Shown here: in pieces, positions 1 to 20,941 of the stretch
How the letters are laid out: every line of letters begins with the position of its first letter
How positions within the stretch are numbered: the stretch's first letter is position 1
Assembly (NCBI GenBank): GCA_050739575.1
Contig: JBOIBN010000001.1
Location: 26,608 to 90,607, forward strand
Origin: Gammaproteobacteria bacterium
GTDB taxonomy: Bacteria > Pseudomonadota > Gammaproteobacteria > JAKDMP01
Direction of reading: 5' to 3'
Length of the DNA stretch: 64,000 nt
Notes under the pieces: generated by a model
What the model was told of the DNA's origin: nothing
Database searches by the model: none
The model's input: the letters and a program-made list of their open reading frames with translations, nothing else
Translations under genes and position numbers: made by a program

Positions 1-31
1 GTATATGTGAAAGTGGCTACCGCATGAATAC

Positions 32-59
32 TTGACTTCTGTGAAACATGTTCTATACT
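32..59 (+). promoter_or_regulatory. Candidate sigma70 early promoter (Pe-like): TTGACT, 16-bp spacer, TATACT, immediately upstream of ner.
   Basis: Near-consensus -35 box at 32-37 and -10 box at 54-59. A second in-frame ATG at 79 is compatible with this promoter. Confidence 0.4.
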
Positions 60-66
60 TTGCCGC

Positions 67-360
67 ATGAGTAGCCGCATGAGTATTCGAGCCCTTCCAA
101 AAAAAGCCGGTCTTTTGGAGGACTGGCATCCGGCCGACATCGTGGCCGAGCTGCGCAAGGCGGGCTGGAGCCTACGCAAGTTGGCGATCCATCACGGCTA
201 TAAGGCACCGAGCACACTGAAGAACGCCATTGCCGCGCCGTGGCCGAAGGGCGAACGCCTGATCGCCGAAGCCATCGGCGTCAAGCCCCAGGACATCTGG
301 CCTTCGCGCTTTGCCGAAAGGGCGCGGCGTAAAGCCGAAGCCCAGCGGGAAGCCGCGTGA
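67..360 (+). CDS. ner: Ner-like DNA-binding protein (Mu Ner / Nlp family)
   Basis: The ORF segment DWHPADIVAELRKAGWSLRKLA...WPKGERLIAEAIGVKPQDIWPSRF is collinear with Mu Ner (DWHRADVIAGLKKRKLSLSAL...HWPKGEQIIANALETKPEVIWPSRY). The start may be the second ATG at 79. Confidence 0.85.
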   Translation: MSSRMSIRALPKKAGLLEDWHPADIVAELRKAGWSLRKLAIHHGYKAPSTLKNAIAAPWPKGERLIAEAIGVKPQDIWPSRFAERARRKAEAQREAA

Positions 361-459
361 GCGCCACGGCATCACGGATCGGAATGTTATCACCGCCGCG
401 GCCGTCCCGAAAGGGCACGGCCGCTTTTTATTTGGAACCCCTTATATAAAGGAAGGGCA

Positions 460-945
460 ATGCCGGGGAAGAATTGGAAACGGGCGCGGGCGCGCTCGAT
501 TTGCCACGGGATAGAACTGTGTCTGGACTTCGCCAGGGAGAAAGGGAACCTTTCCGTCGATCGCGTCGCGGATTTGATGGGGCTTCCGAATAAGTGGGTA
601 CTTTATAAATGGATGGAGTCGGGGCGCATGCCGGCGAACCTAATTCCGCCCTTCGAGCATGCCTGCGGGGCCTCGTTCGTGACCGATTATCTCGGCGGGG
701 TGATCGGCGGCGTGCTGATCAAGATGCCGACGGGCCGAAAGTCGGGACCGGAAGAGGTCGCCGCCCTTCAGCACTCATTCGCCGATGCGATCCAGCAGCT
801 CGCACAGTTCTACGACGGCAAGCGCGGCGCCGAAGAGACGATTGACGCCCTGACCTCGGCGCTCCGCGGCGCGGCCTGGCATCGGGAGAACGTCGCGAAG
901 CTCGCGACGCCGGAGCTGGCGCTCTTCGATGAGGCGCAGACATGA
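460..945 (+). CDS. Phage early-region protein with a central HTH, possibly a CII-like regulator
   Basis: Strong Shine-Dalgarno (AAGGAAGG) 5 nt upstream of the ATG. There is an ATGA overlap with the transposase start. The HTH-like segment VDRVADLMGLPNKWVLYKW weakly resembles lambda CII. Mu itself has no gene at this position. Confidence 0.5.
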   Translation: MPGKNWKRARARSICHGIELCLDFAREKGNLSVDRVADLMGLPNKWVLYKWMESGRMPANLIPPFEHACGASFVTDYLGGVIGGVLIKMPTGRKSGPEEVAALQHSFADAIQQLAQFYDGKRGAEETIDALTSALRGAAWHRENVAKLATPELALFDEAQT

Positions 946-2960
946 AGGAATGGTTTTCGGCGGCAGAATTGGCTGGATTGCCGGGGATGCCAATGACACC
1001 TCGCGGAGTGAACATGGTTGGTGATCGCGGTGGCATACAACGGCGAAAAAAGACGTTTGGAAAGGGATGGGAATATAGTTTTTTGACTTTGCCGGGCGAG
1101 ACGCAGGCGGCTGCGCTCAAGAAGTTCGGGGCTGCGATGCTGCCGGCGCCGGCGGATGGTGACGACGTACCGGCGGCGACGCCGACGAGATCGTCCCGGC
1201 GCGCCGAATTCAAATACGATCCGGAGGCGCTGTGGGCGTGGGCGGCAACGCGGCCGCAGCGGGCGCGCGATCGCGGGGTCGAGCGCGCGGGGCTGCTGAT
1301 GCAGGCGATGCGGCTCGCTGAGGCCGGGCAGGCGTTCGGCGTTGCGATGGAGACGGTCGCGCGGGCGAACGGGATCCCGGTCGTGAATTTGCGGAACTGG
1401 TTTTATGGCGTGAACGGGCATCCCGGCGCGCGGCTGTATGCGCGCAACGACTGGGCCGCGATGCTGGTGCCTTCGTACTGTGGCCGCACGGCGCGGGCCG
1501 AGTGCAGCGAGGAGGCGTGGGACGTCTTCAAGGCGCTGTATCTGCGGCGGCGGGCGCCGAATTGTTCGACCTGCTACGAGCAGGTCGCGAAGATCGCCGC
1601 CGCCAAGGGCTGGGACTGGCCGTCGCAGGCGACGATCCTGCGCCGGGTGCGGGAGCTGCCGCGCGCGGTGCGGGTGCTGGCGCGCGAGGGCGCGGAAGCG
1701 CTCGACCTTTTGATGCCGGCGATGACGCGCGACCGCAGCGGCTTCCACGCGATGGAGGCGGTAAACGGCGACGGCATCGAGTGGAAGCGCTATTGCGTGT
1801 GGCCGGACGGCGAAGTGGCGCGGCCGCACACGTGGATTACGCAGGATCTGTACAGCAACAAGCTGCTCGCGTGGCGCACGGATCGCAGCGAGAACAAGGG
1901 CATGTTCCGGCTCGCCTATGGCGACCTGGTCGAGCGCTTCGGAATCCCGATCTTCTATTACATCGACAACACGATGGCGGCGGCGAGCAAGTGGATGACC
2001 GGCGGCACGCCAAACCGGTACCGCTGGCCGATCAAGGACGAAGACCCGATCGGAATCATGCCGCAGATGGGCACCGAAGTGCGTTTCGTGCAGCCCGGTC
2101 ACGGGCAATCCAAACCGATCGAGCGCGCGAACCGGGAGCTGCGCGAGCGGGTGGATGTTCATCCGCAGTTCGAGGGACGCGGGACGCCGGGACGGCCGAT
2201 CCCGATTGCCGACTTCGTGACGTTGATGGAGGCCGAATTCGCGGCCTATAACGCGAAAAGCGCGCGCCGGGTGCCGAACGCGGCCGGGCGCAGCTTCGAC
2301 GAGACCTTCAACGCGAGTTATTCGAGCGCGCCGATCCGCAAAGCGACCGCCGAGCAGCGGCGCCTGTGGCTGCTGGCCGCCGAGCGCATCTATGCTCAAC
2401 GCGACAACGGCTCGATCGTGCTCGGGCGCGGCCCGCACGGGGAGAACCGTTATTGGAGTGAAGCGCTGGCGCCTTATGCCGGGCAGCATGTCGTAGTGCG
2501 CTTCGATCCGCAGGATTTCAGTCGGCCGGTGCACGTGTACGAGGTCGGCGGCCAGTACGTCGGCGAAGCGCCGTGCACCTGGCAGGCCGGTTTCGCCGAT
2601 GCCGAGTCCGCACAGACCTATCACCGCGAGCGTTCCCGCTGGAAGCGCGACAGAAGGAACGCGCTGGAATCCGAGAAGCGCATGACGACGGCCGCGGCGG
2701 CTTCGCTGATCGAGACACCGCAGCCGGAAGAGCCGCCGGAATCGAAGGTGGTGCAGTTGATGCGCCCGCGGCTGCAACGCGCGGCCAATCACGATGTTGA
2801 CCATGACGACGAGGACGGCGAAAACGAACAGCACTTCATGGCCGCAATGGCGAAATTAACGGGTCCAGTGCGCGATCTGGAGGCCGAACGCGAGGAACGC
2901 GAGCGACATTTCGGGGCCGCCGTCGCGCAGATGAAGGTGCCGGGGAGTTCGTTGTTGTGA
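942..2960 (+). CDS. MuA-family DDE transposase (transposase A)
   Basis: The N-terminus WFSAAELAGLPGMP is like Mu-like A proteins. The catalytic region HAMEAVNGDGI, RFGIPIFYYIDNTMAAASKWMTGGTPNRYRW and VVVRFDPQDF aligns to MuA [44 protein letters not shown] and VVVRFDPQQL. Confidence 0.9.
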   Translation: MKEWFSAAELAGLPGMPMTPRGVNMVGDRGGIQRRKKTFGKGWEYSFLTLPGETQAAALKKFGAAMLPAPADGDDVPAATPTRSSRRAEFKYDPEALWAWAATRPQRARDRGVERAGLLMQAMRLAEAGQAFGVAMETVARANGIPVVNLRNWFYGVNGHPGARLYARNDWAAMLVPSYCGRTARAECSEEAWDVFKALYLRRRAPNCSTCYEQVAKIAAAKGWDWPSQATILRRVRELPRAVRVLAREGAEALDLLMPAMTRDRSGFHAMEAVNGDGIEWKRYCVWPDGEVARPHTWITQDLYSNKLLAWRTDRSENKGMFRLAYGDLVERFGIPIFYYIDNTMAAASKWMTGGTPNRYRWPIKDEDPIGIMPQMGTEVRFVQPGHGQSKPIERANRELRERVDVHPQFEGRGTPGRPIPIADFVTLMEAEFAAYNAKSARRVPNAAGRSFDETFNASYSSAPIRKATAEQRRLWLLAAERIYAQRDNGSIVLGRGPHGENRYWSEALAPYAGQHVVVRFDPQDFSRPVHVYEVGGQYVGEAPCTWQAGFADAESAQTYHRERSRWKRDRRNALESEKRMTTAAAASLIETPQPEEPPESKVVQLMRPRLQRAANHDVDHDDEDGENEQHFMAAMAKLTGPVRDLEAEREERERHFGAAVAQMKVPGSSLL

Positions 2961-3265
2961 AGCATAAAACTGATGACGAACTCTACCGCACCATGCAACT
3001 GATGTTCGAGGAGAAGCGCGCCAACTTCAGGTGCACGCCGACAGATGGGAAATGGTGGCGCGATTACCTGCGCGGCCTGGATCAAGCAACGAGACGAAGG
3101 CTGATCTGGATCAATAGAGCCCATATGAACAGTGCTATCTACGGCGCGCTGGCCGGCATTCTCGATGAGATCGATGAACAACGCGGGCAAAAAGCGGCGC
3201 CTACGAAGCCGGATTTGCGCCTGATTATCAGTAATCCAGAGGATTCGCCGCCGAGCGGCGGGTAA
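2957..3265 (+). CDS. Hypothetical phage early protein (102 aa)
   Basis: The GTG start overlaps the transposase stop (GTGA). I recognise no family. It is positioned between A and the B-like gene. Confidence 0.45.
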   Translation: MKHKTDDELYRTMQLMFEEKRANFRCTPTDGKWWRDYLRGLDQATRRRLIWINRAHMNSAIYGALAGILDEIDEQRGQKAAPTKPDLRLIISNPEDSPPSGG

Positions 3266-3332: not shown

Positions 3333-3932
3333 ATGGCTGTAACGGCTATTTCAATGCGGTCCATCTCGGATCGTAATTTGCGCGGCGAGGTTGCCGCGCT
3401 TATTGCGAGCGAGAACGGCCCGTCACAGGCGACCTTGTCGCGCGAGGCGGGACTGTCGCCGAGCGCGCTCAACCAGTGGCTGCGGGAACGCTACGCGGGC
3501 GATAACCTCGCGGTCGAGATCAAGCTTTCGCAGTATCTCGAAACCTATTACGCCCGGCTCGCGCGCGAGAAGGCGTTGCCGCAGGCTCCGGGCTGGATTG
3601 CGACGCCGACCTCGGAGCGGATCCTGCAGACGCTCGGCTATGCGCAGATCGCGGGCGACATCGTGATCGTGTACGGCGGCGCGCTCGACGAGCAGGACTG
3701 GGGCATTGACGGCGCCGGCGCGCCGGTCGCCATACGCTCGGAGAATCTGTATTCGGGCGCCATCGATGCGCTGAAGGTCGGCTTGTGGGGCCTGCGCTGG
3801 GAGCAGCGCTTCACGCTCGATGCCGTTGATCCGGCGACGCTCGCGCCGTTCCTCACTTTCCACGAAGATACCGACATGGCGCCGGCCGACGGCGTGATCG
3901 ACATGTCGGAAACCGACGAACTGCAGCAATAG
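3333..3932 (+). CDS. MuB-like protein, N-terminal HTH domain retained, Walker A degenerate (probable non-ATPase remnant)
   Basis: LNQWLRERYAGDNLAVEIKLSQYLE aligns to MuB ISSFINDKYNGDNERVSQMLQRWLE. The segment aligning to the MuB P-loop IAVVCGNPGVGKTEAA reads IVIVYGGALDEQDWGI. The protein is 199 aa against ~312 aa in MuB. Confidence 0.55.
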   Translation: MAVTAISMRSISDRNLRGEVAALIASENGPSQATLSREAGLSPSALNQWLRERYAGDNLAVEIKLSQYLETYYARLAREKALPQAPGWIATPTSERILQTLGYAQIAGDIVIVYGGALDEQDWGIDGAGAPVAIRSENLYSGAIDALKVGLWGLRWEQRFTLDAVDPATLAPFLTFHEDTDMAPADGVIDMSETDELQQ

Positions 3933-3940
3933 GAGTCACC

Positions 3941-4162
3941 GTGAACGAATTCAACATCAAGCCGGCAAGCGATGCAGTGAGGGTGCGCGATCCGCGCACC
4001 GGCCGCGCACTCGCCAAGGACGGCGAGACCAAGCCGCGCAACAGCTACTGGCTGCGGCGCCTGCGCGACTGCGACGTGGTCGAAGTCGCCGCGTCCACTT
4101 CATCCGCATCCAAGGCCGCTCCCGTCAAGGCAGACGCCGAACAGAAAGGAGGCAAGTCGTGA
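3941..4162 (+). CDS. Small conserved protein found upstream of the sheath gene in Mu-like tails (DUF2635-like)
   Basis: GGAG lies 7 nt upstream of the GTG start. The motif VRDPRTGRAL...YWLRRLRDCDVV is typical of the small gene preceding the sheath gene in Mu-like prophages. Its stop overlaps the sheath start. Confidence 0.5.
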   Translation: MNEFNIKPASDAVRVRDPRTGRALAKDGETKPRNSYWLRRLRDCDVVEVAASTSSASKAAPVKADAEQKGGKS

Positions 4163-5625
4163 GCATCGAGTTCAATACCATTCCGGGCGACGTCCGCGTT
4201 CCCGGCGTCTATGTGGAGTTCGACTCCAGTCAGGCGCAGACCGGCCTCGCCGACGACAGCTATACGATCCTGGTGATCGGGCAGCGGCTTGCGAGCGGCA
4301 CCGTCGCGGCCGGCGTCCCGACTGCGGTGCAGAGCGCGAGTCAGGCGCAGCAATTCTTCGGAGCGGGCTCGATGCTCGCCAACATGCTCACGGCGCTCAA
4401 GGTCGCGAACCCGTACACCGCGTGCGTCGCGATCGCACTCGATGACGACGAGGCGGCCGTCGCAGCGACGGTGACGGCCACCATTACCGGGCCGGCGACG
4501 GGCGCCGGAACGCTGGCAATGTACATCGCCGGTATCGCCGTGAAAATCGCAGTGGCTTCCGGCGACAGCACGACGACGACGGCAACTGCGCTCGCGGCGG
4601 CCATCAATGCGAACGGAAACCTTCCCTTCACGGCCGGCGCCGCCGCCGGCGTGGTCATGCTCACGGCGCGCAACAAGGGCGTCGCCGCGAACTACATTGA
4701 CGTGCGCCTGAACTATTACGCGGGCGACGTGACTCCGGCCGGCGTGGCGGTGGCGATTGCCGCCGGAACCGCGGGCACGACCAATCCGGACATCACGACC
4801 GCGATCGCGGCAATGGCGGACGACTGGTACCAGGCGATCGCGATGCCCTATACCGATTCCGCGAACCTCGCGGCACTGGAGCTAGAGCTGATTTCGCGCT
4901 GGGGCGGCACGCGTCAGATCGACGGGATTGCCTATGCCGGCTACCGCGGAACAGCGAGCGCGACCGACACCTTCGGCGCCACGCAGAATTCGCCGTTCGT
5001 ATCGTGCATGGGCACTTCGATCTCGCCCACTCCGCCGTGGATCTGGGCCGCAGTCTACGCCGGCGTCGCGGCGGCATCGCTCGCGACCGATCCGGCGCGC
5101 CCGCTGCAGACGCTCACGCTTCCCGGCATATTGCCGCCCGCACGGGCCGATCGCTTCACCTTCGACGAGAAGAATCTCCATCTGCACAGCGGCATCGCGA
5201 CTTTCAACACAGCGCCGGACGGCACCGTGCAGATCCAACGCGAAGTCTCGACTTATCAGTTCAACGCCAATAAAATCGCCGACACTTCATTCCTGGACAT
5301 CACCACACCGGCGACGCTCTCCTACTTCCGCTTCACCACACGCGCGGCCATGACGGCAAAGTTCCCGCGCGAGAAACTCGCGAGCGACGGCACGACCTAT
5401 CCTCCGGGCGCGAACGTGGTGACGCCTTCGGTTCTGCGCGCGGAGCGCATCTCGATCGCCCAGGACTGGGTGAATGCCGGGCTGATGGAAGACCTCGCGC
5501 AATTCAAACAGGATCTGGTAATCCAGATCAATGCGACCGATCCCAACCGGGCCGATTCGCTCAGCTCGCCGAATCTCGTCAATCAGCTCCGCATCATGGC
5601 GGACCTGGTCGAATTCATCCTTTAA
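4159..5625 (+). CDS. Contractile tail sheath protein (Mu gpL-like)
   Basis: The N-terminus MSIEFNTIPGDVRVPGVYVEFDSS...ILVIGQRLASG is collinear with Mu L [24 protein letters not shown]...GLFIGQKLSGG. Confidence 0.9.
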   Translation: MSIEFNTIPGDVRVPGVYVEFDSSQAQTGLADDSYTILVIGQRLASGTVAAGVPTAVQSASQAQQFFGAGSMLANMLTALKVANPYTACVAIALDDDEAAVAATVTATITGPATGAGTLAMYIAGIAVKIAVASGDSTTTTATALAAAINANGNLPFTAGAAAGVVMLTARNKGVAANYIDVRLNYYAGDVTPAGVAVAIAAGTAGTTNPDITTAIAAMADDWYQAIAMPYTDSANLAALELELISRWGGTRQIDGIAYAGYRGTASATDTFGATQNSPFVSCMGTSISPTPPWIWAAVYAGVAAASLATDPARPLQTLTLPGILPPARADRFTFDEKNLHLHSGIATFNTAPDGTVQIQREVSTYQFNANKIADTSFLDITTPATLSYFRFTTRAAMTAKFPREKLASDGTTYPPGANVVTPSVLRAERISIAQDWVNAGLMEDLAQFKQDLVIQINATDPNRADSLSSPNLVNQLRIMADLVEFIL

Positions 5626-5637: not shown

Positions 5638-6000
5638 GTGGCAAACAAATTATTCGGACGCGCAGTGGTGGCCTACGACGGCAACCAACTGCGCGTGGAC
5701 AAGGGCGCGAAGCTCAACACCGGCGGCATCAAGCGCAACACCGTGGTCGGGATGCAGGTCGAGGGCTTCGCCGAGGAGGCCGTCGAGGCATCCGTCGAAG
5801 TCTCCATCTTCATGGATGCGAGCACCGACCTCGACGCGCTCAACGCCGCGGAGGACGTGACCGTGCTGTTCACCGCCGACAGCGGCCAGCAGTACGTGCT
5901 CTCGCATGCGTGGCTCGCCGAACCGACCGAGGCCACGGCCGCCACCGACGGCGGCAAGGTGCCGCTGAAGTTCTGCTCGGCCAGCGCGGAGAAACTCTGA
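5638..6000 (+). CDS. Tail tube protein (Mu gpM-like)
   Basis: A 120-aa ORF directly after the sheath gene, with a GGAGG Shine-Dalgarno. Size and position match Mu M. Confidence 0.75.
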   Translation: MANKLFGRAVVAYDGNQLRVDKGAKLNTGGIKRNTVVGMQVEGFAEEAVEASVEVSIFMDASTDLDALNAAEDVTVLFTADSGQQYVLSHAWLAEPTEATAATDGGKVPLKFCSASAEKL

Positions 6001-6299
6001 TGGCGAACGTGAAGGGAACGCTCAAGCACGGGCTCAAGGTCGGCGACAAACTGCACAAGGATTACGAGCTGCGCGAGTCCACCACGCAGGACATGTTCGA
6101 TGCGGAGGCGGATGCGCCGAGCGATCGGCGCCTGGCGTTCCAGGGCGCGCTGCTCGCGCGCCAGATCGTCAAGCTCGGCGACCTCGGCGGCCCGCTCGAC
6201 TTCTCGCTGATCGGCAAGCTGCATCCGGAAGACTTCACGGATCTGATCGCCGATGCCGCCGCAGCGGATGCAGCGGGAAAAAACGCACCGGCGAGCTGA
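6001..6299 (+). CDS. Tail assembly chaperone (Mu gp41-like, lambda G-like)
   Basis: A 99-aa acidic ORF between the tube and tape measure genes. The ATG at 6001 overlaps the tube stop. It ends just after a G GGA AAA AAC slippery run. Confidence 0.7.
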
Positions 6300-6445
6300 A
6301 GGGCCTGCATCAAAAAACCCTTTTGCTCGCGCGCAAAACCGGCTGGACCCGAAGCGAGATTCTTGGGCTGTCACGTTCGGAGTTCGATTTTTATGTAGAG
6401 ACGCTGATCGAGTGGAGCACAGAGGAAGACGAATACGATGAGTGA
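6001..6445 (+). CDS. Predicted -1 frameshift fusion product of the tail assembly chaperone (G-T-like)
   Basis: Slippery heptamers G GGA AAA and A AAA AAC are in the zero frame at 6275-6284. The -1 frame runs open for 55 codons (KKRTGELKGLHQKTLLLARKTGWTRSEILGLSRSEFDFYVETLIEWSTEEDEYDE) and ends at 6445, overlapping the tape measure start. Confidence 0.55.
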
Positions 6446-8408
6446 CAGCACCCTCGATCTCGCCATGCGCATCACCGCAATAGATGTCTTCAGCGGGGTG
6501 CTGAATCGCTTCCGCACGCAGATCATGGGCGCGGGGGCGCAGTCCAAAGAATTGATGCGCGACTACGACCTCGCGCTTTCCAACATCCGCAAGGGGTTCA
6601 ACGGGCTCGCAGCCGCCAAGTACGGCTTCGACAAAATGAAGCCCGCGCTCGACAACGCTGCGAAGCTCCAGCAGGCGACGCTTGCCTTCTCGCAGATCCT
6701 GCAGGGCGCCCATCCGAACGCGAAGAAGCTCGCCGATCAAATGCAGCGCGTCAGCGACAATGCCATCAGCGTGGCGCGGCACATGAAATACAGCGCCATC
6801 GAGGTCATGGACGTCTCGCGGCTGCTCTACAAGTCCGGCATTCCGCTCGCGGCCATTCTCGACCGCGTGGGCAAAAGCGGCAAGACCATTTACGGCCTCG
6901 CCTACTACACCGAGGCGCTCGCCGAGACGCAGGGCACGACGCCGCAAGAGACGGCGGCGCAGATCGGCAACGTCGGCCATGCGTTCCGGTTGAAGCCGAA
7001 CCAATATGCGCGCGCCATCAACCTGATCACGCAGGCGCAACCGGTCGCATCCGGTTCGCTCACCGAGCTGTTCCACAATCTGGCCCAGTCGGGCGCCATT
7101 ACCAAATACCTCAGCCATACGAGCCTGCTCAGCCTGCTGGCGGGACTTAAAACGGTAGCGCCGCTTGGTGAAGAGGGGGGTACCGATTTCGCGACCATGC
7201 TGGAGACCTTCGGATCCATGCGGGTGCGCGGCAAAAAATATCTGCAAAAATATGGACTGAATTTTTACGATAAACAGGGCCAATTCCTGGGCCTCGATAA
7301 ATCGTTAGACGTGCTGCGTAAAACCATTGCGGCGCGGCACTGGACGCCAGAGCAGATAAACAAGATTTTGGGACCCATCTTCGGGCAACAGGGACTCAAG
7401 GCCATCGCGCTGATGACCGCGCCGAACGCGCCGGGAGTGAAAAGTTACCAGGAAATCAAAAAATCGATCACGGAGCAGGCCAACCTCAGTCAGCAACGGA
7501 TCGAGTGGGAGAAGGGTTACCTCGCGCAGCTTTCCGAGCTGAAGACTACGGGGCAAACGTTGAGCGCGGTGCTCGCAACGCCGGTCCTGAGCCCGACCGT
7601 CGGCGTGATGAAAACGCTGAACGACTGGATGGGCGATTTCACGCTCGCCGCCCATCATCACAAGTCCATCGGCATCGCCGCGACGGCCGCAGGGGGCGCC
7701 GCGCTTGCCGCCGCCGTCGGCTATTCGGCCTGGAATCTGATCAAAACGATAAAGCCCGGCAGCCACGTACTGCGCAGCCTGCTCGGCAAAGGCGGGGGCT
7801 TGGCCGCCCGCATCGGCGAAGGCAAGCTTATCCAAAAAGTCGCCGGGGTGCCGTCGGTCTTCGTGGTGAATATGCCCTCCGGTGGGCTTCCGGCGCCGGC
7901 CGGAGGCATCCCCCCGGGCGGCTCACGGATTTTGCTGCCGCCATCATTCGGCGAGAGAGGCGCGGCGATCGCGGCAGGCAGCATTGCCGCGCGCCTGAAG
8001 GGCTTCTTGCTGGCGCCGGCGTTGGCATCCATCAGCTCGGCAAAAGGATTGAAGGCGACCGCGGGCGCGGCCGGGAAACTCGTCGGTGCATTGGGACTCG
8101 CCGCCAGCGCCGGTTGGGCATTAGGCAAGGCGCTCGACCGCATCCCCGCCGTGCACAGTTTCTTCGACAAGGAGTTCCAGAACAGTCTGGCGAATGCAGT
8201 GATCACGGCTGCTTCCGGCGCGAACAAGAATGCGGTCGAATTGACCCGCGGCGCGCAACTGGAGCGCGCATGGCGCACGCAGCACAAGGACTTCAAGGGC
8301 GCGATCAAGATCACGATCGATAGCAAGGGCAAAGCGCATGTGACCGAGCTGCGCAGTAGCACACCGCGCGTGAACCTGAGCGTCGGCCATGCGATGAGCA
8401 CGCCGTGA
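6438..8408 (+). CDS. Tail tape measure protein
   Basis: 656 aa, helical and Gly/Ala-rich, located after the chaperone and its frameshift extension. Confidence 0.85.
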   Translation: MSDSTLDLAMRITAIDVFSGVLNRFRTQIMGAGAQSKELMRDYDLALSNIRKGFNGLAAAKYGFDKMKPALDNAAKLQQATLAFSQILQGAHPNAKKLADQMQRVSDNAISVARHMKYSAIEVMDVSRLLYKSGIPLAAILDRVGKSGKTIYGLAYYTEALAETQGTTPQETAAQIGNVGHAFRLKPNQYARAINLITQAQPVASGSLTELFHNLAQSGAITKYLSHTSLLSLLAGLKTVAPLGEEGGTDFATMLETFGSMRVRGKKYLQKYGLNFYDKQGQFLGLDKSLDVLRKTIAARHWTPEQINKILGPIFGQQGLKAIALMTAPNAPGVKSYQEIKKSITEQANLSQQRIEWEKGYLAQLSELKTTGQTLSAVLATPVLSPTVGVMKTLNDWMGDFTLAAHHHKSIGIAATAAGGAALAAAVGYSAWNLIKTIKPGSHVLRSLLGKGGGLAARIGEGKLIQKVAGVPSVFVVNMPSGGLPAPAGGIPPGGSRILLPPSFGERGAAIAAGSIAARLKGFLLAPALASISSAKGLKATAGAAGKLVGALGLAASAGWALGKALDRIPAVHSFFDKEFQNSLANAVITAASGANKNAVELTRGAQLERAWRTQHKDFKGAIKITIDSKGKAHVTELRSSTPRVNLSVGHAMSTP

Positions 8409-8410
8409 TG

Positions 8411-13156: not shown

Positions 13157-15669
13157 GCGCGGATACCTACGCCGCCACCGAACGTGCGCTGCTGCCGCCC
13201 GGCCGCGCGCTCGCCGATGGCGGCGAAGGCACGCTCACGGATCTGCTCGAGGCGCTCGCCCAGGAATTCTCGCGCGTGGATGCGAGCGGCGACGTGCTGC
13301 TGCAGGAAGCCTTCCCCGACACCGCCGTCGAGCTGCTTCCGGATTGGGAGCGCATCGCCAAACTGCCGTCCGCCTGCACGCCGGCCGGCCAGACGACGGC
13401 GCAGCGGCAGGCGTCGGTGGTGCGCAAACTCACGGCCAACGAAGCGCAGACGATTGCGTTCATCGTTGCACTCGCCGCGTCCTACGGCTATACGATCTCG
13501 ATCGTGGAGCGCCGGGCGCTGCGCTTCGGCTACAACGCCTATTGCGGCTACCCGTTCGGAAGCTGGGACTGGCAATTCGTGTGGGAGGCGCACAGCGAAG
13601 GCACGCCGATCGAAATGCTGTATTTCGACACGGGCCATTGCGGCGACGATTTCGGCGCCTTCGGCGATCCGACGATGGAGTGCCGCCTGAAGACCGGCAA
13701 CCAGAGCCACATCATTCCGCGCTTCTGCTACGACTTCACCGGCTACAACCTGTTCCAGTATCGCGACATCGGTCGGCTGTTCTGGATCGGCCGCGCCGGA
13801 TCTCTGTTCCAGGATACTGCCGGCACGGTGCCCGTCACTGCCTACGGCCAGACCGTGGGCTTGATTAAAGACCTCTCAGGTCACGGCGGCGATCTCATGC
13901 TCACGGTCGGGCCGGGCGCCGTGTACTCGCAGGACGAGAACGGCTACGACTGCCTGGTGAGCGCGGGCGATTCGATGTACAGCGGCTCCGATGCCGATCT
14001 GCCGATGGGCGCGAACAACGTCCACATTGCCGCCACGGTGGCCTTCGATCAGTTCACCAAAAACGCGAGCTGCTTCAACTACGGCACCAGCGCGATCCTC
14101 GAAGAGCGCGGCATCGGTCTCGACAATTCGACGCCGCAGAAAATGACCGCGAATATCTACAACGTCCAGGCCGACGGCCAGTCGCCGATCGCAGGCCAGC
14201 CTTACGTGATGGAGTGCGATGTGCTCTACCACACGGTCAGCCTGTATATCGACGGAGTCTTCGAGAGCAGCGCCACCGGCGTCGTCAATACGGTCAGCGG
14301 CGCACTCACGCTGTTCGGTTCGGCGTTGCCGGGAAAACTGTTTACCGGAAAGTTTTACGGCGGCGTGATCTTCGGTGGGAGTTCCTGGCCGCGCGCGGCC
14401 GTGACGCGCTGGCTCGGAGCGCTCGCGGGACAGACGTTTCCCGGCTATGACCTGCTGCTGCTCGACCAGGCTTTCGCGCGCAGCTCTCAGGCGACGTGGA
14501 CGGACCCGGCCGGGATCCTCCAGACGGCGAGCGCCAATGCGGCCCGCTATAACAATGATCGCGACACCGGCGAGGCTTACGGACTGCTGATCGAGGAGCC
14601 GCGTACCAATCAGATTACCGATCCGTTCAATCCGACGACGTCGAATTGGGTGCAGACCAATGCGGCCGCGGCGCTCGCCCAGGGCACAGGCCCCGACGGT
14701 TCCAATTCGCTCATCAAGCTCACGACCGATGTCGTCGCGACCGTCGAACCGCACATGTACAACATCACCTGCCTGATCCCGGACCCCGCGCCCGACGTCA
14801 TCAGCGTTCTGACGTGGGTGCAGCGCGGCAACTACGACAACGGTGCGTCGCCGACGATCCGGATGCATTCCAAACAGACGCCGGCGCCTGGAGCGGGCAC
14901 GCCGGTCGATGTGAGCGCGCGTATTCTGCAAGGCCCCGGCAGCGTAGATATCGCCGACTTTGACGCCGGGCTGGTGCAGGTATACGGGCTGTCGCAGACC
15001 GAACCCACGTTGATCGAAACACGCACGATGATTCCCTTGATCGCTGGTCAGACCTACATCCTCACCTGCCGCAACCGCGATCAGGCCATCGGCGCCCAGG
15101 TGGGCGACACCACCTTTTGGTACGCCCAGCAGTTCGAGTTCGCCGATTTCGCGAGCACGTTGATTCCGAGCGGCGTCGCCACGCGGCCCGGCGACGATGT
15201 CGCCATTCCCCCGACTTGGGCGGCGACCGAAGCCGGGTGCCTGTGGGGCGAATTCCGCGTCCGGAATCTGCCGCCGAATCCGTATCCGACATCTTCGGGC
15301 ATCGTTGCAGCACTGGCATACACGGCCGCGAACACCTTCATCGGAGTCAATGTGGATTCCAACGGCCAGTTGATTATTACCGGCCGTCTTGCCGGCAGCG
15401 CTTATCAGCAGGCTTATACGCCGAACGGAAGCATTGTCGCGGGGCAGAGCTACAAATTCGCCGCGTCCTGGTCCCCGACCGCGTTTCGCCTTTCGCTCAA
15501 CGGTGCGGCCGTGATCAGCGCTGCGCAAACGCAAGCGCTGCCGACCGCGCCCAGCCAGTTCTTCGTCGGTTCGATTTCCGGCACCTATTACCTCAACGGC
15601 ACCGTGCGTTCGCTGCGCTATGCCCCTTTCGCGCCCGCCAACGCGCAGCTGCAGGCGCTCGCTTCGTGA
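13147..15669 (+). CDS. Mu gp48-like (DUF2313) N-terminal domain fused to a long tail-fibre / receptor-binding region with two concanavalin/LamG-like segments
   Basis: The first ~190 aa match Mu gp48. The protein then continues for ~650 aa with LYIDG and LNGTVRSL lectin-like signatures. It is 840 aa in total. Confidence 0.65.
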   Translation: MGLSADTYAATERALLPPGRALADGGEGTLTDLLEALAQEFSRVDASGDVLLQEAFPDTAVELLPDWERIAKLPSACTPAGQTTAQRQASVVRKLTANEAQTIAFIVALAASYGYTISIVERRALRFGYNAYCGYPFGSWDWQFVWEAHSEGTPIEMLYFDTGHCGDDFGAFGDPTMECRLKTGNQSHIIPRFCYDFTGYNLFQYRDIGRLFWIGRAGSLFQDTAGTVPVTAYGQTVGLIKDLSGHGGDLMLTVGPGAVYSQDENGYDCLVSAGDSMYSGSDADLPMGANNVHIAATVAFDQFTKNASCFNYGTSAILEERGIGLDNSTPQKMTANIYNVQADGQSPIAGQPYVMECDVLYHTVSLYIDGVFESSATGVVNTVSGALTLFGSALPGKLFTGKFYGGVIFGGSSWPRAAVTRWLGALAGQTFPGYDLLLLDQAFARSSQATWTDPAGILQTASANAARYNNDRDTGEAYGLLIEEPRTNQITDPFNPTTSNWVQTNAAAALAQGTGPDGSNSLIKLTTDVVATVEPHMYNITCLIPDPAPDVISVLTWVQRGNYDNGASPTIRMHSKQTPAPGAGTPVDVSARILQGPGSVDIADFDAGLVQVYGLSQTEPTLIETRTMIPLIAGQTYILTCRNRDQAIGAQVGDTTFWYAQQFEFADFASTLIPSGVATRPGDDVAIPPTWAATEAGCLWGEFRVRNLPPNPYPTSSGIVAALAYTAANTFIGVNVDSNGQLIITGRLAGSAYQQAYTPNGSIVAGQSYKFAASWSPTAFRLSLNGAAVISAAQTQALPTAPSQFFVGSISGTYYLNGTVRSLRYAPFAPANAQLQALAS

Positions 15670-15687: not shown

Positions 15688-16218
15688 GTGGACTATCCAG
15701 TATCTGATGACACCGTCGGCCTGGTGGCCGGCAAATTCAGCGACGGCGATCCGACCAGCGGCATCCCCGCATCGCGCTGGCCCTCGGAAACGGCGGACGC
15801 CATCATGGACGAGCTGATCGCCGTTATCGTGCAGGGCGGCCTCACGCCCGCCGAAGCGACGCTCACGCAGGTGCGCGACGCGATTCTCGCGATCGTCACC
15901 GCGGCACTGGGTACCGCAATTCCCAAGGACAAGTTCAATGCGACGGCCGATCCGGTCGTGACCAACGACAGCAGTCAGGGCTACAGCGAAGGCTCGCGCT
16001 GGTTCAACACGACGACGCCGGACGTGTTCGTGTGCATCAATCCTGCTGTCGGTGCCGCGGTGTGGCTGAAGTCCACGCTCGAACTCGCGGATCTCGCGAA
16101 CTTCGCCGTTAAAAATGCCGACAACGAATTCAGCGCGGGCCAGAGCGTGACCGGCAATCTCACGATTGACGGCAACATCTACTCGACCGGCGTGGTCCAG
16201 GCCGGTGTGACGCTGTGA
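15688..16218 (+). CDS. Putative tail fibre-associated protein
   Basis: 176-aa ORF directly after the gp48-fibre fusion gene. The sequence NLTIDGNIYSTGVVQ is fibre-like. GGAG precedes the GTG start. Confidence 0.4.
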   Translation: MDYPVSDDTVGLVAGKFSDGDPTSGIPASRWPSETADAIMDELIAVIVQGGLTPAEATLTQVRDAILAIVTAALGTAIPKDKFNATADPVVTNDSSQGYSEGSRWFNTTTPDVFVCINPAVGAAVWLKSTLELADLANFAVKNADNEFSAGQSVTGNLTIDGNIYSTGVVQAGVTL

Positions 16219-17198
16219 GCCTTGCCGCGCAAAAGTTCATAGACGCGCTCGGCTTCGACGTGGCTGATATCTTCGAGCCGTGGGAATCGGGCGATCCGCA
16301 TGCGGCCGACACCGGTTTCCAGAACGCGGCCGGCGACGATCTGTCCGCCGTGCTCGCACCGCTTTCGGTCGGCTCCGCGATCGATCACGACACCATGTTC
16401 CAGAACGGCGCCGGCACCGACCTGAACGCGATCTTCGCGAAGAAGGGCTCGCGCAGCGGATCGGCGATCAGCGCGACAATTCCCTCGACCGCGAACGCCG
16501 TCACCCATGCGCCCGGCGGTACGGCGAGCGCGGACCTGACCTGCGTCCCCGCCGGCGGCTCCGGAACGGGCTACACGTTCTTGTGGACCGTCGTGAGCGG
16601 CAGCGCGACGATCACCAATGCGACCTCGCCGACCTGCACCGTGCAGGAAGCGGTGCCCGGTACCGGTTCCATCACGAGCACCTTCAAGTGCCATGTCGTG
16701 GATTCCGCCAGCAATTCCTGCGACAGCAACAACGGCGTCGTTACATTCAAATATGTCGCCGTCGGCGGCAGCGATTGCCTGCGGCTCGATCAATGGCTCG
16801 CGCCCACGGTGCAGGTGCGCGACGCCCACAAGGGGATGTTGCTCGATGCGCGCACCGACGCCGACGAATTCTGCCGGCTGCCGATCGTGAACGATCCGAC
16901 CATCATCCTGCAGCTCTGCTACCGGCTCATCGCGGCCAACGGATACGCGATCGAGTGCACCGTGAGCACGCCATTCACACTTCCCGACGGAGAAAGCTAT
17001 CCGGCGCCGCGGATGCTCGGCCGGATGTTGCTCTGTCACGAAACCCGTGAATGGTCGCCGATCGTGACCGTCCAGTCATTGGGACGCTGCGCGGCCATGC
17101 TCATCAGCCTGGGCGGCGCGAGCTATGCCGGCGGCGACGAGCCGAACAAGCGCAGCTATTCCCACAACACCCGCAAGTTTGGACCCATCTCACCGTAA
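16215..17198 (+). CDS. Hypothetical tail fibre-region protein (Cys-rich, Ig-like segments)
   Basis: 327 aa. The start overlaps the upstream stop. It lies within the fibre module. Confidence 0.4.
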   Translation: MSLAAQKFIDALGFDVADIFEPWESGDPHAADTGFQNAAGDDLSAVLAPLSVGSAIDHDTMFQNGAGTDLNAIFAKKGSRSGSAISATIPSTANAVTHAPGGTASADLTCVPAGGSGTGYTFLWTVVSGSATITNATSPTCTVQEAVPGTGSITSTFKCHVVDSASNSCDSNNGVVTFKYVAVGGSDCLRLDQWLAPTVQVRDAHKGMLLDARTDADEFCRLPIVNDPTIILQLCYRLIAANGYAIECTVSTPFTLPDGESYPAPRMLGRMLLCHETREWSPIVTVQSLGRCAAMLISLGGASYAGGDEPNKRSYSHNTRKFGPISP

Positions 17199-17213
17199 AT
17201 CAGGAGAACCTCG

Positions 17214-17654
17214 ATGCTCGCCTTTAACAAGTTCAACGCCTTCGTACTTGCCGTCGCGACGAAAAAGATCGATCTCAATGCAGACACGCTCAAGATCATG
17301 CTCACGGATACGGCGTCGGTGGTGACCAATTCCGTCAAGACCGACATCACCGAAATATCCGCCGGCAACGGCTACAGCGCCGGCGGCGCTGCCGTCGGAA
17401 GCAATTCCGCCTCGCAGACCTCCGGCACCATGAAGGTGGTCGGCGACGCCGTGACCTTCACCGCCAGCGGCGGCGCGATCGCGCAGTTCCGCTACCTGGT
17501 GCTTTACGACGATACCGCCGCGAGCAAGGATCTGATCGGTTGGTGGGACAACGGCAGTGAAGTCAATCTCGGCGACGGCTCGAGCTTCACGCTCGGCGAC
17601 GATTTCAGCGGGGATAACTGGGATGCCACGACGCCGCTCTTTACGCTGGCGTAA
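17214..17654 (+). CDS. Hypothetical small beta-rich tail-region protein
   Basis: 146 aa, with an AGGAGA Shine-Dalgarno 6 nt upstream. Confidence 0.4.
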   Translation: MLAFNKFNAFVLAVATKKIDLNADTLKIMLTDTASVVTNSVKTDITEISAGNGYSAGGAAVGSNSASQTSGTMKVVGDAVTFTASGGAIAQFRYLVLYDDTAASKDLIGWWDNGSEVNLGDGSSFTLGDDFSGDNWDATTPLFTLA

Positions 17655-17663
17655 CGCACGACG

Positions 17664-19214
17664 ATGAGTGCCCCGACCCCGGTCCAGTCGAAATCGAATC
17701 AAAGCTCCAGCGCGGCAACGCTGGGCATCGTCTTCGATGCGGCGCCGGGGGTCGGAAACATCCTGATCGCGCAGGTGAATTTCGTCGGTACCGGCGCATC
17801 CGATCCAGCCGTCGCGCCGGACGGCACCTGGTACCCGCTCCTGAGCGGTTTGAATTACGGCACCATCTCCGGGTACAACGGTTGGCAGGATATCTGGTAT
17901 CACGAAGTCGAGAGCGGCGAAGCCAATTCCTACACCTTCGGCATCGGCGCCGCGACGCCGACCATATGGTCGGTGGTCGTGGACGAGTATTCCGGAGTGG
18001 ATGTCGCGAGCGTGCTCGACGTTGCGACAGTCCTCACGGCCACCGGCAACGGCAAGACGTTCGCCGCTCCGGCCAACACGACGCTCGACGCCAATGCCCT
18101 CGTGCTATTTTGCAACGTCTATTACGACGGAGCCAATCAGGTGTACACCGCGCCGTCCGGCTATTCGCAAGACGGCCTGAACTCGGTCGCGGGCGCCAAA
18201 AATGCAATTTGTTCGATCGCTCAAGCGACCGCAGGTGGGACGGGCACTCCCTCGGCTTCGATCAACGGATCCGTAAACAAGCTGTGGGGAGTCGCGCTGC
18301 TGGCCTTGAAGGCGAGTACCGCCGCACACGATTATGCGGCGGCCGCCGGAGCGTCTTACGCCCTCACCGGCGCCGCTGGCGGCACTGTGCAACGCATCGC
18401 AGCGGCCGGCGCGAGCGTGGCGCTTGCGGGTGCATCCGCCGGATCGGCTCAACGCAGCGGTGCAGCCGGCGGCGTATTCGTCGCTGGCGGCGCGGACGCC
18501 GGCATTGTGCTGCATTGGCTCATTGCCGGCGCCGGCGCCGCGTTCGCCGGAGCGGGCTCTCCTGCAGGTACCGCCCGGCGCGCGGGCGCTGCGGGTACAG
18601 CGTTTGCGCTGGCCGGTGCGGATGCTGCAGGCGCGCGGCGCAGCGGTGCAGCCGGCGGCGTGTTCGCATGGAGCGGTGCGCAGGCGACGATGCGGCTGCA
18701 CCTGTTCGTTGCGGGAGCCGGCGCGACTTTCAACTGGGTCGGTGCAGGTGCCTTCGGCACGGGCGTTCAGCGTTATTTCGGTGCGGCTTCCGGTGCCACA
18801 TTCGCGATCGCTGGCGCCCACGCCGTGATCGTCCTGCATTGGCACATCGCCGGTGCGGGTGCCGTTTTCGTCGCCAATGGCGCCGCTGCCGGGAGCGCGC
18901 AACATCGCGCCGCGGCCGGGGCGGACATGACGCTTGCGGGGAGCGCTGCAGCTTCAGCGCGGCGCGTCGGTGCGGCCGGCCCCGCATTCTCCACACAAGG
19001 CGCGGCGGCCGGATGGGTGGTGCGACTTTACGTCGCTGGCGCCGGGGCCGATTTCGAATGGCTGGGCGCGCCGGCCGGAACTCTTTTCAGCGGGCGCCGC
19101 GACTATCACGCGGTCACCGCGGTGGATCGCTCGCCGCGCTACGCGCTCTCGATGCAGCCCGGCATTCAAAGCGCCATTAACGGCGGCATTAAAGCCGTCT
19201 TCATCGAGGATTGA
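17664..19214 (+). CDS. Tail-region protein with ~12 tandem ~21-residue Ala/Gly repeats (AGAGAxF...)
   Basis: The N-terminal 220 aa are unique. They are followed by repeats such as AAGGVFVAGGADAGIVLHWLI and AGAGAAFAGAGSPAGTARRAG. Confidence 0.5.
   Translation: MSAPTPVQSKSNQSSSAATLGIVFDAAPGVGNILIAQVNFVGTGASDPAVAPDGTWYPLLSGLNYGTISGYNGWQDIWYHEVESGEANSYTFGIGAATPTIWSVVVDEYSGVDVASVLDVATVLTATGNGKTFAAPANTTLDANALVLFCNVYYDGANQVYTAPSGYSQDGLNSVAGAKNAICSIAQATAGGTGTPSASINGSVNKLWGVALLALKASTAAHDYAAAAGASYALTGAAGGTVQRIAAAGASVALAGASAGSAQRSGAAGGVFVAGGADAGIVLHWLIAGAGAAFAGAGSPAGTARRAGAAGTAFALAGADAAGARRSGAAGGVFAWSGAQATMRLHLFVAGAGATFNWVGAGAFGTGVQRYFGAASGATFAIAGAHAVIVLHWHIAGAGAVFVANGAAAGSAQHRAAAGADMTLAGSAAASARRVGAAGPAFSTQGAAAGWVVRLYVAGAGADFEWLGAPAGTLFSGRRDYHAVTAVDRSPRYALSMQPGIQSAINGGIKAVFIED
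18340..19080 (+). repeat. Degenerate 63-bp tandem repeat array (~12 units) inside the 17664..19214 gene
   Basis: Repeated gcngccggngcngg...ttcg... units are visible in the DNA and as 21-aa units in the protein. Confidence 0.6.
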
Positions 19215-19516
19215 ACGTGGCCACCATCTACATCGGCCGAGACAATCCGTTCAAATTGCAGGCGTCGGAAGACGGCGCCTCGATCGACCTGAGCGGCGTC
19301 ACCAAGATGGCGGTACGCGTCGGTGCAGCCGATACCGATTCCGATGCGAATCCGATACTCTTCGACTGGAGCGCCGGCGACGGCGTCGTCAGCATAATCG
19401 TCGGGCTCGTCCCCCAATTGAGCGCAGGCGCGAAACGGCTGCGTCTCATCGCCTATTCAGACGCATGGCCCGATGGGATCGTGCTGGGCGATCTTCCCGT
19501 CGATGTCACCGCGTGA
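19211..19516 (+). CDS. Hypothetical protein (101 aa)
   Basis: The ORF overlaps the upstream stop. The start codon is uncertain (TTG or GTG). Confidence 0.3.
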   Translation: MNVATIYIGRDNPFKLQASEDGASIDLSGVTKMAVRVGAADTDSDANPILFDWSAGDGVVSIIVGLVPQLSAGAKRLRLIAYSDAWPDGIVLGDLPVDVTA

Positions 19517-19544
19517 TTGGCCTCATCAACTTTGGAGCATCCCC

Positions 19545-20678
19545 ATGAATACCCTAAAATCCATCGGCTGCGCGATACTCAAAATTTTCGGGCATCCGTG
19601 TACGCAACCGCCGATGCCTTCCGCATTGCCGCGCCAACGCGGCGTCGTTTGCGTGTTCGGCGGCGCCGGCGGTGTCCAGCCGGGGATGCTGCAAACGCTG
19701 CGCGATACGTTCGGGCCGAACTGCAACAGCGTGCGGCTGTATCTTCACCTAAAGAATGTCGCCGCTGCCGCCAAGATCACGCTCGCCGGAGCCGAGCAGC
19801 TCGCTTATGCCTGGGCGGACGCAATGCTCGACGAGGCTTCGAAGCTCGGCATGAATTGCTGGATTCACCGCCGCTACTTCTACATGCCGGACGGCACGCT
19901 GATTGATCGCACGAGTCCGGACTTCTGGAACAATGTGAACGGCCAATTCGACCAGGCGCTCTCGCAGGTCACGGCAATGGCCACGCACTTCCACGCCCAC
20001 GGTGCGGAACTGGCGGGCTACGACATCATCAGCGAGCCCGTCGCGATCGTGAACGGCGTGGACCAAGTGCCGCCGGGCTATCTCGCGCGCCAGATCCAGA
20101 TCCTCGACGCGCTCGACAGCGGCGATGCCGCGCTCACGTCGAAGAACGGCACGCGCTACGCGATCGCCAAATTCGCCCCGTGGGCCGGTGCGGTCGGCTA
20201 TGCTGGCCAGCAGCCTGTTCCCGGCTTCCCGCGTCTCGTTTACGGCGTCCACTTCTACCAACCCAGGCCGTCCGTCTATGCGGGCGTCGAGAAACCCTAC
20301 GGCTTCCCCGGTCCCGGCTGGCCGTGCACGATTGGCACGACGGCATGGAATGCGGCCGAGTTGCAGAAGGTGTTGCAGCCGGCTCTCGACTTCGGGTCCA
20401 CCTACGGCGTGCGCATGAGTCTGAGCGAGTTCAGCTACGCCCGCTGGAGCGCCGGCGGCGAGCAGTGGCTGAGCGACCTCATCGGCATCGTCGAAGCCGC
20501 CGGCTGGGACTGGAACTATTTCATGGTCGGCGCCGCGCCTGGCGTGGTCGCTCAATGCTGGGCGGCCGAATACGATGCCTCCTTCACCCCGGCCGCCTTC
20601 GGCCTTCCGGGCGAAGTCGGCATCGGCGCATCGCCGCGCGGCAAAGCCCTAGCCAGCATTTTCCAGGCCATCAAGTAA
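19545..20678 (+). CDS. Glycoside hydrolase family 5-like protein (cellulase superfamily), last gene of the element
   Basis: GGAGCA lies 6 nt upstream of the ATG. The candidate acid/base Glu is in YDIISEP (GH5 NEP position). The candidate nucleophile Glu is in MSLSEFSY. VHFY lies between them. Confidence 0.45.
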   Translation: MNTLKSIGCAILKIFGHPCTQPPMPSALPRQRGVVCVFGGAGGVQPGMLQTLRDTFGPNCNSVRLYLHLKNVAAAAKITLAGAEQLAYAWADAMLDEASKLGMNCWIHRRYFYMPDGTLIDRTSPDFWNNVNGQFDQALSQVTAMATHFHAHGAELAGYDIISEPVAIVNGVDQVPPGYLARQIQILDALDSGDAALTSKNGTRYAIAKFAPWAGAVGYAGQQPVPGFPRLVYGVHFYQPRPSVYAGVEKPYGFPGPGWPCTIGTTAWNAAELQKVLQPALDFGSTYGVRMSLSEFSYARWSAGGEQWLSDLIGIVEAAGWDWNYFMVGAAPGVVAQCWAAEYDASFTPAAFGLPGEVGIGASPRGKALASIFQAIK

Positions 20679-20689
20679 GGAGAGCGGCC

Positions 20690-20941
20690 GAACGTTGTTT
20701 GCGCAACGTCTTCGCCGGCCTGGCGATGGAAAGTATCCCGATCCGGTACACGGTGGGCGGCGGCGCCGGCGTCGAACGCCAGGAACTGATCATCCGTTCG
20801 CGCCCCGACGGCTGGACCGGTCAGGGGCGCCTTTTATGACCCTTTACAGGCCTATAATTCGTCGTTCAGGGGTCGCCGCCTGCCGTGAAATTTCTTCGCA
20901 AACCAAGTGATCCAGATTCGCAAACCAAGTGAACGCTTACA
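20690..20941 (+). repeat. Mu-type right end (attR): three transposase-binding repeats, two direct and one inverted, with a terminal ...CA
   Basis: TTCGCAAACCAAGTGA occurs at 20895-20910 and again at 20917-20932. An inverted copy, CGTTGTTTGCGCAACG, lies at ~20690-20706. The reverse complement of the terminus, TGTAAGCGTTCACTTGGTTTGCGAA, resembles the Mu L1 site TGTATTGATTCACTTGAAGTACGAAAA. Confidence 0.6.

Follow-up and report, generated by a model that had tools for sequence, protein, structure and literature searches.

Prophages that have decayed by deletion are commonplace. In the laboratory, engineered mini-Mu elements carry both ends of phage Mu and its transposase gene A, with the late genes deleted, and they usually have no tail genes while often keeping B. 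Defective and partial Mu-like prophages of bacterial genomes have reportedly been compared with Mu by Morgan et al. in 2002 (J Mol Biol 317:337; reference 52 in PMC4542187); our own literature search on defective Mu-like prophages returned nothing specific. The R-type syringacin of Pseudomonas syringae, a contractile-tail bacteriocin or tailocin, has a Mu/SfV-like tail and no replication or transposition genes, keeps regulatory and candidate lysis genes, sits at a trpE-trpG locus that is conserved across strains, and has demonstrated killing activity (PMC4542187). Here we analyse a window of 64,000 nt (contig JBOIBN010000001.1 of GCA_050739575.1, positions 26,608-90,607, forward strand), whose first 20,941 nt hold the greater part of a Mu-like element of ~21.7 kb that combines a transposase and a contractile-tail operon. 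We conclude, with a probability of roughly 85%, that this element is a defective (cryptic) Mu-like prophage produced by one internal illegitimate deletion, probably a recent one. An earlier reading of the window, made from its letters alone (the sequence-only reading), had proposed a transposase joined to a complete tail module and had weighed a domesticated tailocin-like element against a recent deletion derivative; a fusion scar and occurrence in one lineage favour the deletion derivative and speak against the tailocin-like element.

The evidence that carries this conclusion is an open reading frame (ORF) at 3333-3932, which encodes 199 residues and is an in-frame fusion of the start of B to the end of gp37 (B'::'gp37). 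Its parts are as follows.

3333-3683, + strand: 5' remnant of B, encoding residues 1-117 of the MuB N-terminal region, with YGGA within the Walker-A motif as its end
3681-3686, no strand assigned: deletion junction, TAC GGC GGC GCG / CTC GAC, read at the DNA level
3678-3932, + strand: 3' remnant of gp37 (Mu gp37 / K family), its C-terminal 84 codons out of ~181, continuing the frame of the B remnant

The whole ORF had previously been taken for a B-like gene; its homology instead falls into two halves that meet at 3681-3686. Families were assigned throughout with Pfam, PHROG and NCBIfam profiles and by matches to the Protein Data Bank (PDB). Among PHROGs, residues 24-116 match the DNA transposition protein family (phrog_296) and residues 116-198 the C-terminus of phrog_490. 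The distribution of the fusion protein among 5.8 billion proteins, examined with a word-based search of limited sensitivity, gave the same division, with three types of match: MuB homologues of 314-322 residues (AAA_22 and Phage-MuB_C domains) that align to the first half only, 180-residue proteins that align to the second half only, and the fusion itself, found as one 100%-identical copy that forms a single cluster.

Residues 1-117 of the fusion are 52-60% identical to residues 1-117 of MuB homologues of 316-320 residues; in one alignment, fusion residues 14-117 pair with residues 13-116 of the homologue P0002 at 52% identity, ending YGGA. The intact B proteins of two relatives, L010 and L011, read on past the breakpoint as IYG[SA]AGV[SG]KT, and we therefore place the break inside the Walker-A motif (GxxGxGKT/S). 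Residues 2-101 of Mu B, up to its own P-loop, also align to the fusion (28% identity, E 3e-11). The rest of the Walker-A motif and the AAA and MuB_C domains are deleted, leaving the MuB ATPase incomplete, and B is, to judge from what is left of it, non-functional.

For the second half, fusion residues 116-199 align with residues 97-180 of the 181-residue protein P0007 at 57% identity, and another homologue, P0008, matches Pfam Phage_Mu_Gp37. The profile of this family aligns to Mu gp37 by hhalign with a probability of 89.5% (E 1.9e-6); BLASTP of the C-terminal half of the fusion directly against Mu gp37 gave no match. In L005, a Mu-like relative, and in Mu alike, the gene of this family adjoins the DUF2635 and sheath genes on their upstream side. 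Homology to B stops at residue 117 and homology to gp37 starts at residue 116. The stop (3932) and the start that follows it (3941) lie where the sequence-only reading had put them, and the 8-nt gap between them is the native gp37-gp38 spacing (6 nt in L005).

By cryo-electron microscopy (cryo-EM), gp37 is a hexamer that caps the tube and sheath of Mu, and every siphophage, myophage and contractile injection system has a gene for a terminator or collar protein (PMC11915804). On this structure and on gene position we rejected the "portal protein" label that phrog_490 and RefSeq Mup37 carry, in favour of tail terminator. The label, attached in RefSeq to Mu gp37 (20954-21502 of the Mu reference), looks like an annotation error and could mislead automated calls of head genes.

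Could the join between B and gp37 be a misassembly, with the real prophage complete? The NCBI protein record is labelled as coming from a metagenome-assembled genome (MAG), as such an artefact would lead one to expect. The same fusion is nevertheless found in the window, in a 42-kb contig of GCA_974167825.1 (L001) that is 100% identical to the window over their 13.9-kb overlap, in the NCBI MAG record (a 99-kb contig) and in Logan. The join preserves the reading frame and lies inside two unrelated genes, the junction sequence holds no repeat able to cause assembly collapse, and both flanks of the element belong to one coherent host gene cluster. We regard an artefact as extremely improbable.

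L001 reaches 4.7 kb further left than the window and supplies the left boundary, so that the element is seen whole, from its left end in L001 to window position 20941. Just upstream of window position 1 lies one further gene.

L001 4108-4632, - strand: CI-like repressor

Some 220 bp of end sequence separate this gene from the host genes on the left. The c repressor and left end that had been expected upstream of position 1 are thus located, and the scenario in which head genes lie just upstream, inside the same ends, is excluded, because only the repressor and the left end, followed by host genes, are found there.

What the deletion would have removed can be read from intact relatives. We compared the element with L003, L005, L010, L011 and L013, with L006 and L007 from IMG/VR, and with Mu itself (L016, NC_000929.1), running every annotated Mu protein by tblastn against the element and the rest of the window. 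The genes that come after B in L003 are Kil, DUF3164, GemA, a Mor-like gene, an SLT endolysin, gp27 and the large terminase. L005 continues the order with gp27, large terminase, portal, F, protease/scaffold, major capsid, FluMu_N, the gp36 adaptor and Phage_tail_S, and then gp37, DUF2635, sheath, tube, gp41 and tape measure. The gene order of Mu matches that of these relatives, and in L011 (transposase 60% identical) and L013, the nearest relatives with flanking sequence around B, no tail genes come after B either. In a composite of L003 and L005, ~18.8 kb separate the end of B from the beginning of gp37; with the missing parts of B and gp37 added, the deletion would come to about 19.7 kb and the ancestor to about 41 kb.

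The Mu proteins with tblastn matches in the element are ner, A, B (residues 2-101 only), gp38, L, M, gp41 and gp43-gp48; Mu kil through gp36, S, U, gin, com and mom have none in the element or in the rest of the window. Early, lysis and head ORFs of at least 70 residues from five relatives likewise have no match in the window, apart from the C-terminus of gp37 (3645-3920). Family searches and the proteins of the relatives and of Mu revealed no endolysin, holin or spanin homologue in the element, and the window holds no homologue of Mor/C-type late activators. The absence of portal, protease, capsid, terminase, lysis, Mor/C, gin and mom genes, claimed from the sequence-only reading, is thus upheld for all 64 kb against the proteins of Mu and the ORFs of five relatives.

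The tail module that follows the fusion consists of these genes.

3941-4162, + strand: gp38 (Pfam DUF2635, E 2.7e-17; 57% identical to Mu gp38)
4159-5625, + strand: tail sheath, Mu L (Pfam Phage_sheath_1 and Phage_sheath_1C; 43% identical to Mu L over its full length)
5638-6000, + strand: tail tube, Mu M (Pfam Tail_tube, E 3.5e-29)
6000-6445, + strand: tail assembly chaperone gp41 (6000-6299; Pfam Gp41_Mu) with its -1 extension (6278-6445)
6438-8408, + strand: tape-measure protein (Pfam PhageMin_Tail; 60% identical to the start of the L005 tape measure)
8411-8749, - strand: antisense 112-residue ORF (a moron) with a signal-peptide-like N-terminus; a gene in the NCBI record
8788-10029, + strand: gp43 / N, DNA circularisation protein and tube initiator (Pfam DNA_circ_N, E 2.5e-30)
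10022-11062, + strand: gp44 / P baseplate hub (Pfam GpP-like_1st, Gp44-like_2nd, NMB1110_3rd and GpP_4th)
11062-11628, + strand: gp45 spike (Pfam Phage_Mu_Gp45)
11628-12074, + strand: gp46 baseplate wedge (Pfam GP46, E 6.9e-33)
12074-13156, + strand: gp47 J-like baseplate wedge (Pfam Baseplate_J, E 1.2e-60)
13147-15669, + strand: gp48 wedge domain (residues 1-196) with a 640-residue C-terminal extension (Pfam Phage_Mu_Gp48 and Laminin_G_3; phrog_203, phrog_5939)

From gp38 to gp48 the genes are full-length, free of internal stops and colinear with Mu and with L006 and L007, and a search for disrupted tail ORFs, which would have told against the sequence-only reading, found none. The frameshift site included in that reading is also present: a slippery heptamer, G GGA AAA, lies at 6275-6281 in the gp41 frame. 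The -1 frame then stays free of stops as far as 6445 and encodes a stretch with 53% identity (E 2e-12) to its -1 counterpart in L005, where the slippery site is G GGA AAC. Given this conservation of the -1 frame between the element and L005, we take it that the programmed -1 frameshift in gp41 is real. An alternative frameshift product, the ORF at 6253-6441, was rejected in favour of the -1 frame at 6278-6445, as it lies in the +1 frame and encodes Arg-rich junk.

Two words of the earlier description do not hold. The tail module is not complete, because the terminator gp37 is reduced to its last 84 residues; as far as the gene content tells, it is without an intact terminator, those residues being fused to the DNA-binding N-terminus of B, and an S-like completion protein is also gone. 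Nor is it uninterrupted, since the antisense ORF at 8411-8749 sits between the tape-measure and gp43 genes. This ORF, which we preferred to a + strand ORF at 8405-8791 on composition and on the NCBI gene call, fills a gap of 380 bp where in Mu and L007 the genes abut or overlap, and has no family match in Pfam, PHROGs or NCBIfam. At the other end of the module, gp48 has 840 residues compared with 180 in Mu, and only its first 195 align to gp48 of L006 and L007; the extra 640 residues hold a LamG-like domain and matches to tail-protein PHROGs, and the protein may be a wedge-receptor-binding fusion.

An intact run from gp38 to gp48 and on through the fibre region, with a conserved frameshift and an intact repressor, is also what would be expected of a Mu-derived tailocin, incipient or already domesticated, in which the Mu repressor and early promoter govern the making of contractile tails without heads. 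Co-transcription of the tail genes with the early genes is conceivable, as a promoter-like site precedes ner and a consensus scan predicted no terminator-like site on the + strand from 60 to ~9490. There is also a precedent for a tailocin with a Mu-like tail in the R-type syringacin; the earlier statement that no Mu-derived tailocin retaining a transposase is known needs to be qualified accordingly, as that tailocin has the tail and no transposition genes (PMC4542187). Yet the terminator is down to 84 C-terminal residues and is fused to a DNA-binding domain, and lysis genes and late activators are missing: the SLT endolysin of the relatives falls in the deleted segment, and the only hydrolase-like ORF in the element is a GH5-like one. 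Moreover, the architecture occurs in one lineage only, at 100% identity, the transposase and the ends are still there, and the junction is an untrimmed gene fusion. Of the features of a tailocin, then, the element has tail genes without head genes; we found no intact terminator or lysis cassette in the window, and no conservation across lineages. We consider domestication very unlikely. It is equally a long shot that an otherwise intact tail operon, placed by the deletion behind a repressor-controlled early operon, marks the first step in the birth of a tailocin, or a transposase-bearing producer of tails, as it is, separately, that the flanking repeat described below is an 8-bp target duplication.

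Measured as a Mu-like prophage, the element has a transposase, a repressor and ner, and is without the B ATPase and the head, packaging and lysis modules. The divergent, CI-like repressor and ner are both present at the left end, and the early genes within the window are the following.

32-59, + strand: sigma-70-like promoter TTGACT-16-TATACT, a consensus match only and a candidate early promoter (Pe equivalent), upstream of ner
67-360, + strand: ner-like regulator (Pfam HTH_35, E 3.7e-25; 53% identical to Mu Ner)
460-945, + strand: homologue of CII-like transcriptional activators (phrog_101, E 5e-22; 54% identical in L010)
942-2960, + strand: MuA-type DDE transposase of 672 residues (Pfam HTH_Tnp_Mu_1, HTH_Tnp_Mu_2, DDE_2 and Mu-transpos_C)
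2957-3265, + strand: ORF of 102 residues, after A and before the fusion ORF (annotated as a gene by NCBI, without a family match)

The transposase is 35% identical to Mu A and aligns to the MuA transpososome chain of PDB 4fcy (E 1.9e-82), in which alignment the equivalents of D269, D336 and E392 are kept in the motifs NGDG, IDNT and KPIERA. It is apparently intact, and the proposed retention of Ner and a MuA-type transposase is borne out by Pfam domains and by these conserved DDE residues. As a query, the transposase found a single 37%-identical N-terminal fragment, in a Rhodospirillaceae genome, among genome contigs, and nothing beyond a match of 53 residues among viral contigs. The 102-residue ORF overlaps the stop codon of A; L010 leaves no room for it, its transposase match ending at 4010 and its B starting at 4155.

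Both ends of the element carry arrays of repeats that resemble transposase sites, with the right terminus CA and the left TC.

20895-20906 and 20917-20928, - strand: right end, two perfect 12-mers TTGGTTTGCGAA, with the terminus ...GCTTACA (CA) at 20941
20942-20949 on the right and L001 3882-3889 (window -813 to -806) on the left, no strand assigned: exact 8-bp flanking direct repeat CCTCCGAT

The two copies of TTGGTTTGCGAA at the right end are spaced 22 bp apart and, together with the CA at 20941, confirm the Mu-type right end that had been recognised from the sequence. At the left end, three copies with one or two mismatches lie at L001 3903, 4011 and 4061, a layout of one site, a gap and two sites that we take to resemble Mu attL. 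The 8-bp repeat CCTCCGAT and the left terminus TC (L001 3890) follow when each terminus is set 13 nt away from the first 12-mer, an assumption supported by L010, whose TG falls at that spacing; the element's own right end has TG at the same spacing as well (as CA). A 5-bp duplication, CCTCC, is possible only with a left end 3 nt longer than the right, and the empty site expected is the same whether the duplication is taken as 5 bp or as 8 bp. In this single insertion, the TC terminus and the 8-bp repeat reflect either a mutated left end or a real difference of the lineage.

A transposase with all its domains and its DDE triad, the same 12-mer arrays at both ends, laid out much as in Mu (a pair of adjacent sites on the right; on the left one site, a gap and a pair), and preserved flanking direct repeats would suit a natural mini-Mu, mobile by A alone or mobilised and packaged by a related helper phage, with the tail genes as passengers. 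Against mobility of this kind, B is destroyed at its Walker-A motif. In Mu without B, transposition is ~100-fold lower and target immunity is abolished. The left terminus, moreover, is TC, where the ends of Mu, the element's own right end and L010 have TG, and the window holds one copy of the element, no further insertion site having been found. We regard a natural mini-Mu as quite unlikely.

Altogether, the DNA shows directly which genes are present, how two of them are fused, where the element begins and ends, and that it is syntenic with intact relatives; these findings support a model whereby a phage of ~41 kb with the canonical Mu gene order would have suffered a single illegitimate deletion of ~20 kb that joined B codon ~117 in frame to gp37 codon ~97. 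Among early functions, the loss would have comprised the B ATPase, kil, other semi-essential early genes and Mor/C-type late activators; among late functions, lysis, the terminase, portal, protease/scaffold and capsid, the gp36 adaptor, an S-like completion protein and the greater part of the terminator. The deletion would have spared both ends of the element, its repressor, ner and cII-like genes, a transposase gene A that is apparently intact, and the tail genes from gp38 through to the fibre region. The deletion is probably recent, because the remaining genes are all intact and because the fusion forms, in the records found, one cluster at 100% identity; recency is in turn the simplest account of why the tail genes are still intact. 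A prophage of this kind would be expected to show no kil-type killing, packaging, virions or cell lysis, and would at best transpose weakly, given the loss of B and a left terminus that departs from the canonical one. It is tempting to speculate, from the promoter-like site and the lack of a predicted terminator, that derepression could drive early transcription into the tail genes; tails made in this way would lack a terminator and a mechanism of release.

Several points weigh against this model or soften its details. All ~20 remaining ORFs are intact, including the programmed frameshift, and purifying selection would give the same picture; without diverged copies, recency is inseparable from selection, and even the nearest relatives reach protein identities of only 40-64%. 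That there was just one deletion is the simplest reading of one junction, and the size of that deletion is pieced together from two relatives whose identity is no more than 40-57%. Finally, the source sequences appear to be metagenome-assembled, and the junction is known from assemblies alone.

Downstream of gp48, the right-hand part of the element holds ORFs of a more individual character.

15688-19516, + strand: five ORFs (176, 327, 146, 516 and 101 residues), the first with a tail-fibre-like N-terminus
19545-20678, + strand: GH5-like endoglucanase homologue (PDB 8b3y, 8ag9 and 8anx, E 3.5e-15 to 2.3e-14; weak Pfam Cellulase match)

In the first of the five, residues 1-100 match tail-fibre PHROGs, and the 146-residue ORF matches phrog_644; Pfam, PHROG and NCBIfam-type searches gave no other family match for the group. 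The 516-residue ORF (17664-19214) is strongly Ala/Gly-rich, with loosely repeated "AGAGA...F...AGA" segments, and lies where GC content peaks (0.69 over a kilobase). No family matched it, Tandem Repeats Finder detected no tandem repeat in its DNA, and at most it is a candidate fibre-like protein. The GH5-like ORF, the last gene before the right end, is the sole hydrolase-like ORF in the element and matches solved endoglucanases (best PDB match 8b3y, E 3.5e-15) and no endolysin family; it had no match in a collection of 50,697 phage records and is probably a cargo gene or a depolymerase. Among the relatives, the early region of L003 carries an Avd-like gene, a reverse transcriptase gene (RVT_1) and Lcl_C-domain genes at 13587-15376, which looks like a diversity-generating retroelement.

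The host genes to the left of the element, in L001, encode a thiolase, an acyl-CoA dehydrogenase and a Leu/Glu-type dehydrogenase, and those after 20941 encode methylcrotonyl-CoA carboxylase beta, an enoyl-CoA hydratase, carboxylase alpha and HMG-CoA lyase. The prophage thus splits a cluster for leucine/isovalerate catabolism, with L001 257-3877 on one side and window 21158-26547 on the other. It is inserted 12 bp past the thiolase stop codon, co-directional with the host genes, and may be polar on those downstream. By Pfam annotation, the remaining 43 kb of the window consist of housekeeping genes and two tRNAs.

For annotation, our results suggest that what seemed an element made of a transposase plus a tail is best described as a prophage soon after a large deletion, with the breakpoint placed within a few nucleotides. 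It would offer a clean natural case in which one illegitimate deletion removes lethal and virion functions (kil, lysis and heads) and spares the tail operon and the transposase, and deletion products of this sort are the raw material from which tailocins are thought to arise. Were this architecture found both conserved and expressed, the element would be the first among Mu-derived tail elements to have kept its transposase; nothing here indicates that this is so.

Compared with Mu, the element has the same order of genes, from c, ner, A and B to gp37, gp38, L, M, gp41, the tape measure and gp43-gp48, with a transposase 35% and a sheath 43% identical, repeated 12-mers at the ends and a CA right terminus, and it shares the -1 frameshift in the chaperone gene with its Mu-like relative L005. 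It differs from Mu in the ~20 kb that are gone between B codon ~117 and gp37 codon ~97, in having no homologues of the S/U fibre genes, gin or com/mom, in a cII-like gene between ner and A and the presence of cargo genes, and in the flanking repeat and left terminus, which are 8 bp and TC here against 5 bp and TG in Mu. With other defective Mu-like prophages it shares the loss of part of the genome, and with it of virions, in the general manner in which prophages decay by deletion; it appears to differ from them in a single clean internal deletion with an in-frame B'::'gp37 fusion and all remaining genes intact. Like the mini-Mu of the laboratory, it has both ends, A and an internal deletion of late genes, but it is natural, has lost B and has kept tail genes. 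And like the R-type syringacin, it carries Mu-type contractile-tail genes without head genes, although the element, known here from its genes alone, keeps a transposase and is without the intact terminator, the lysis genes and the conservation across strains.

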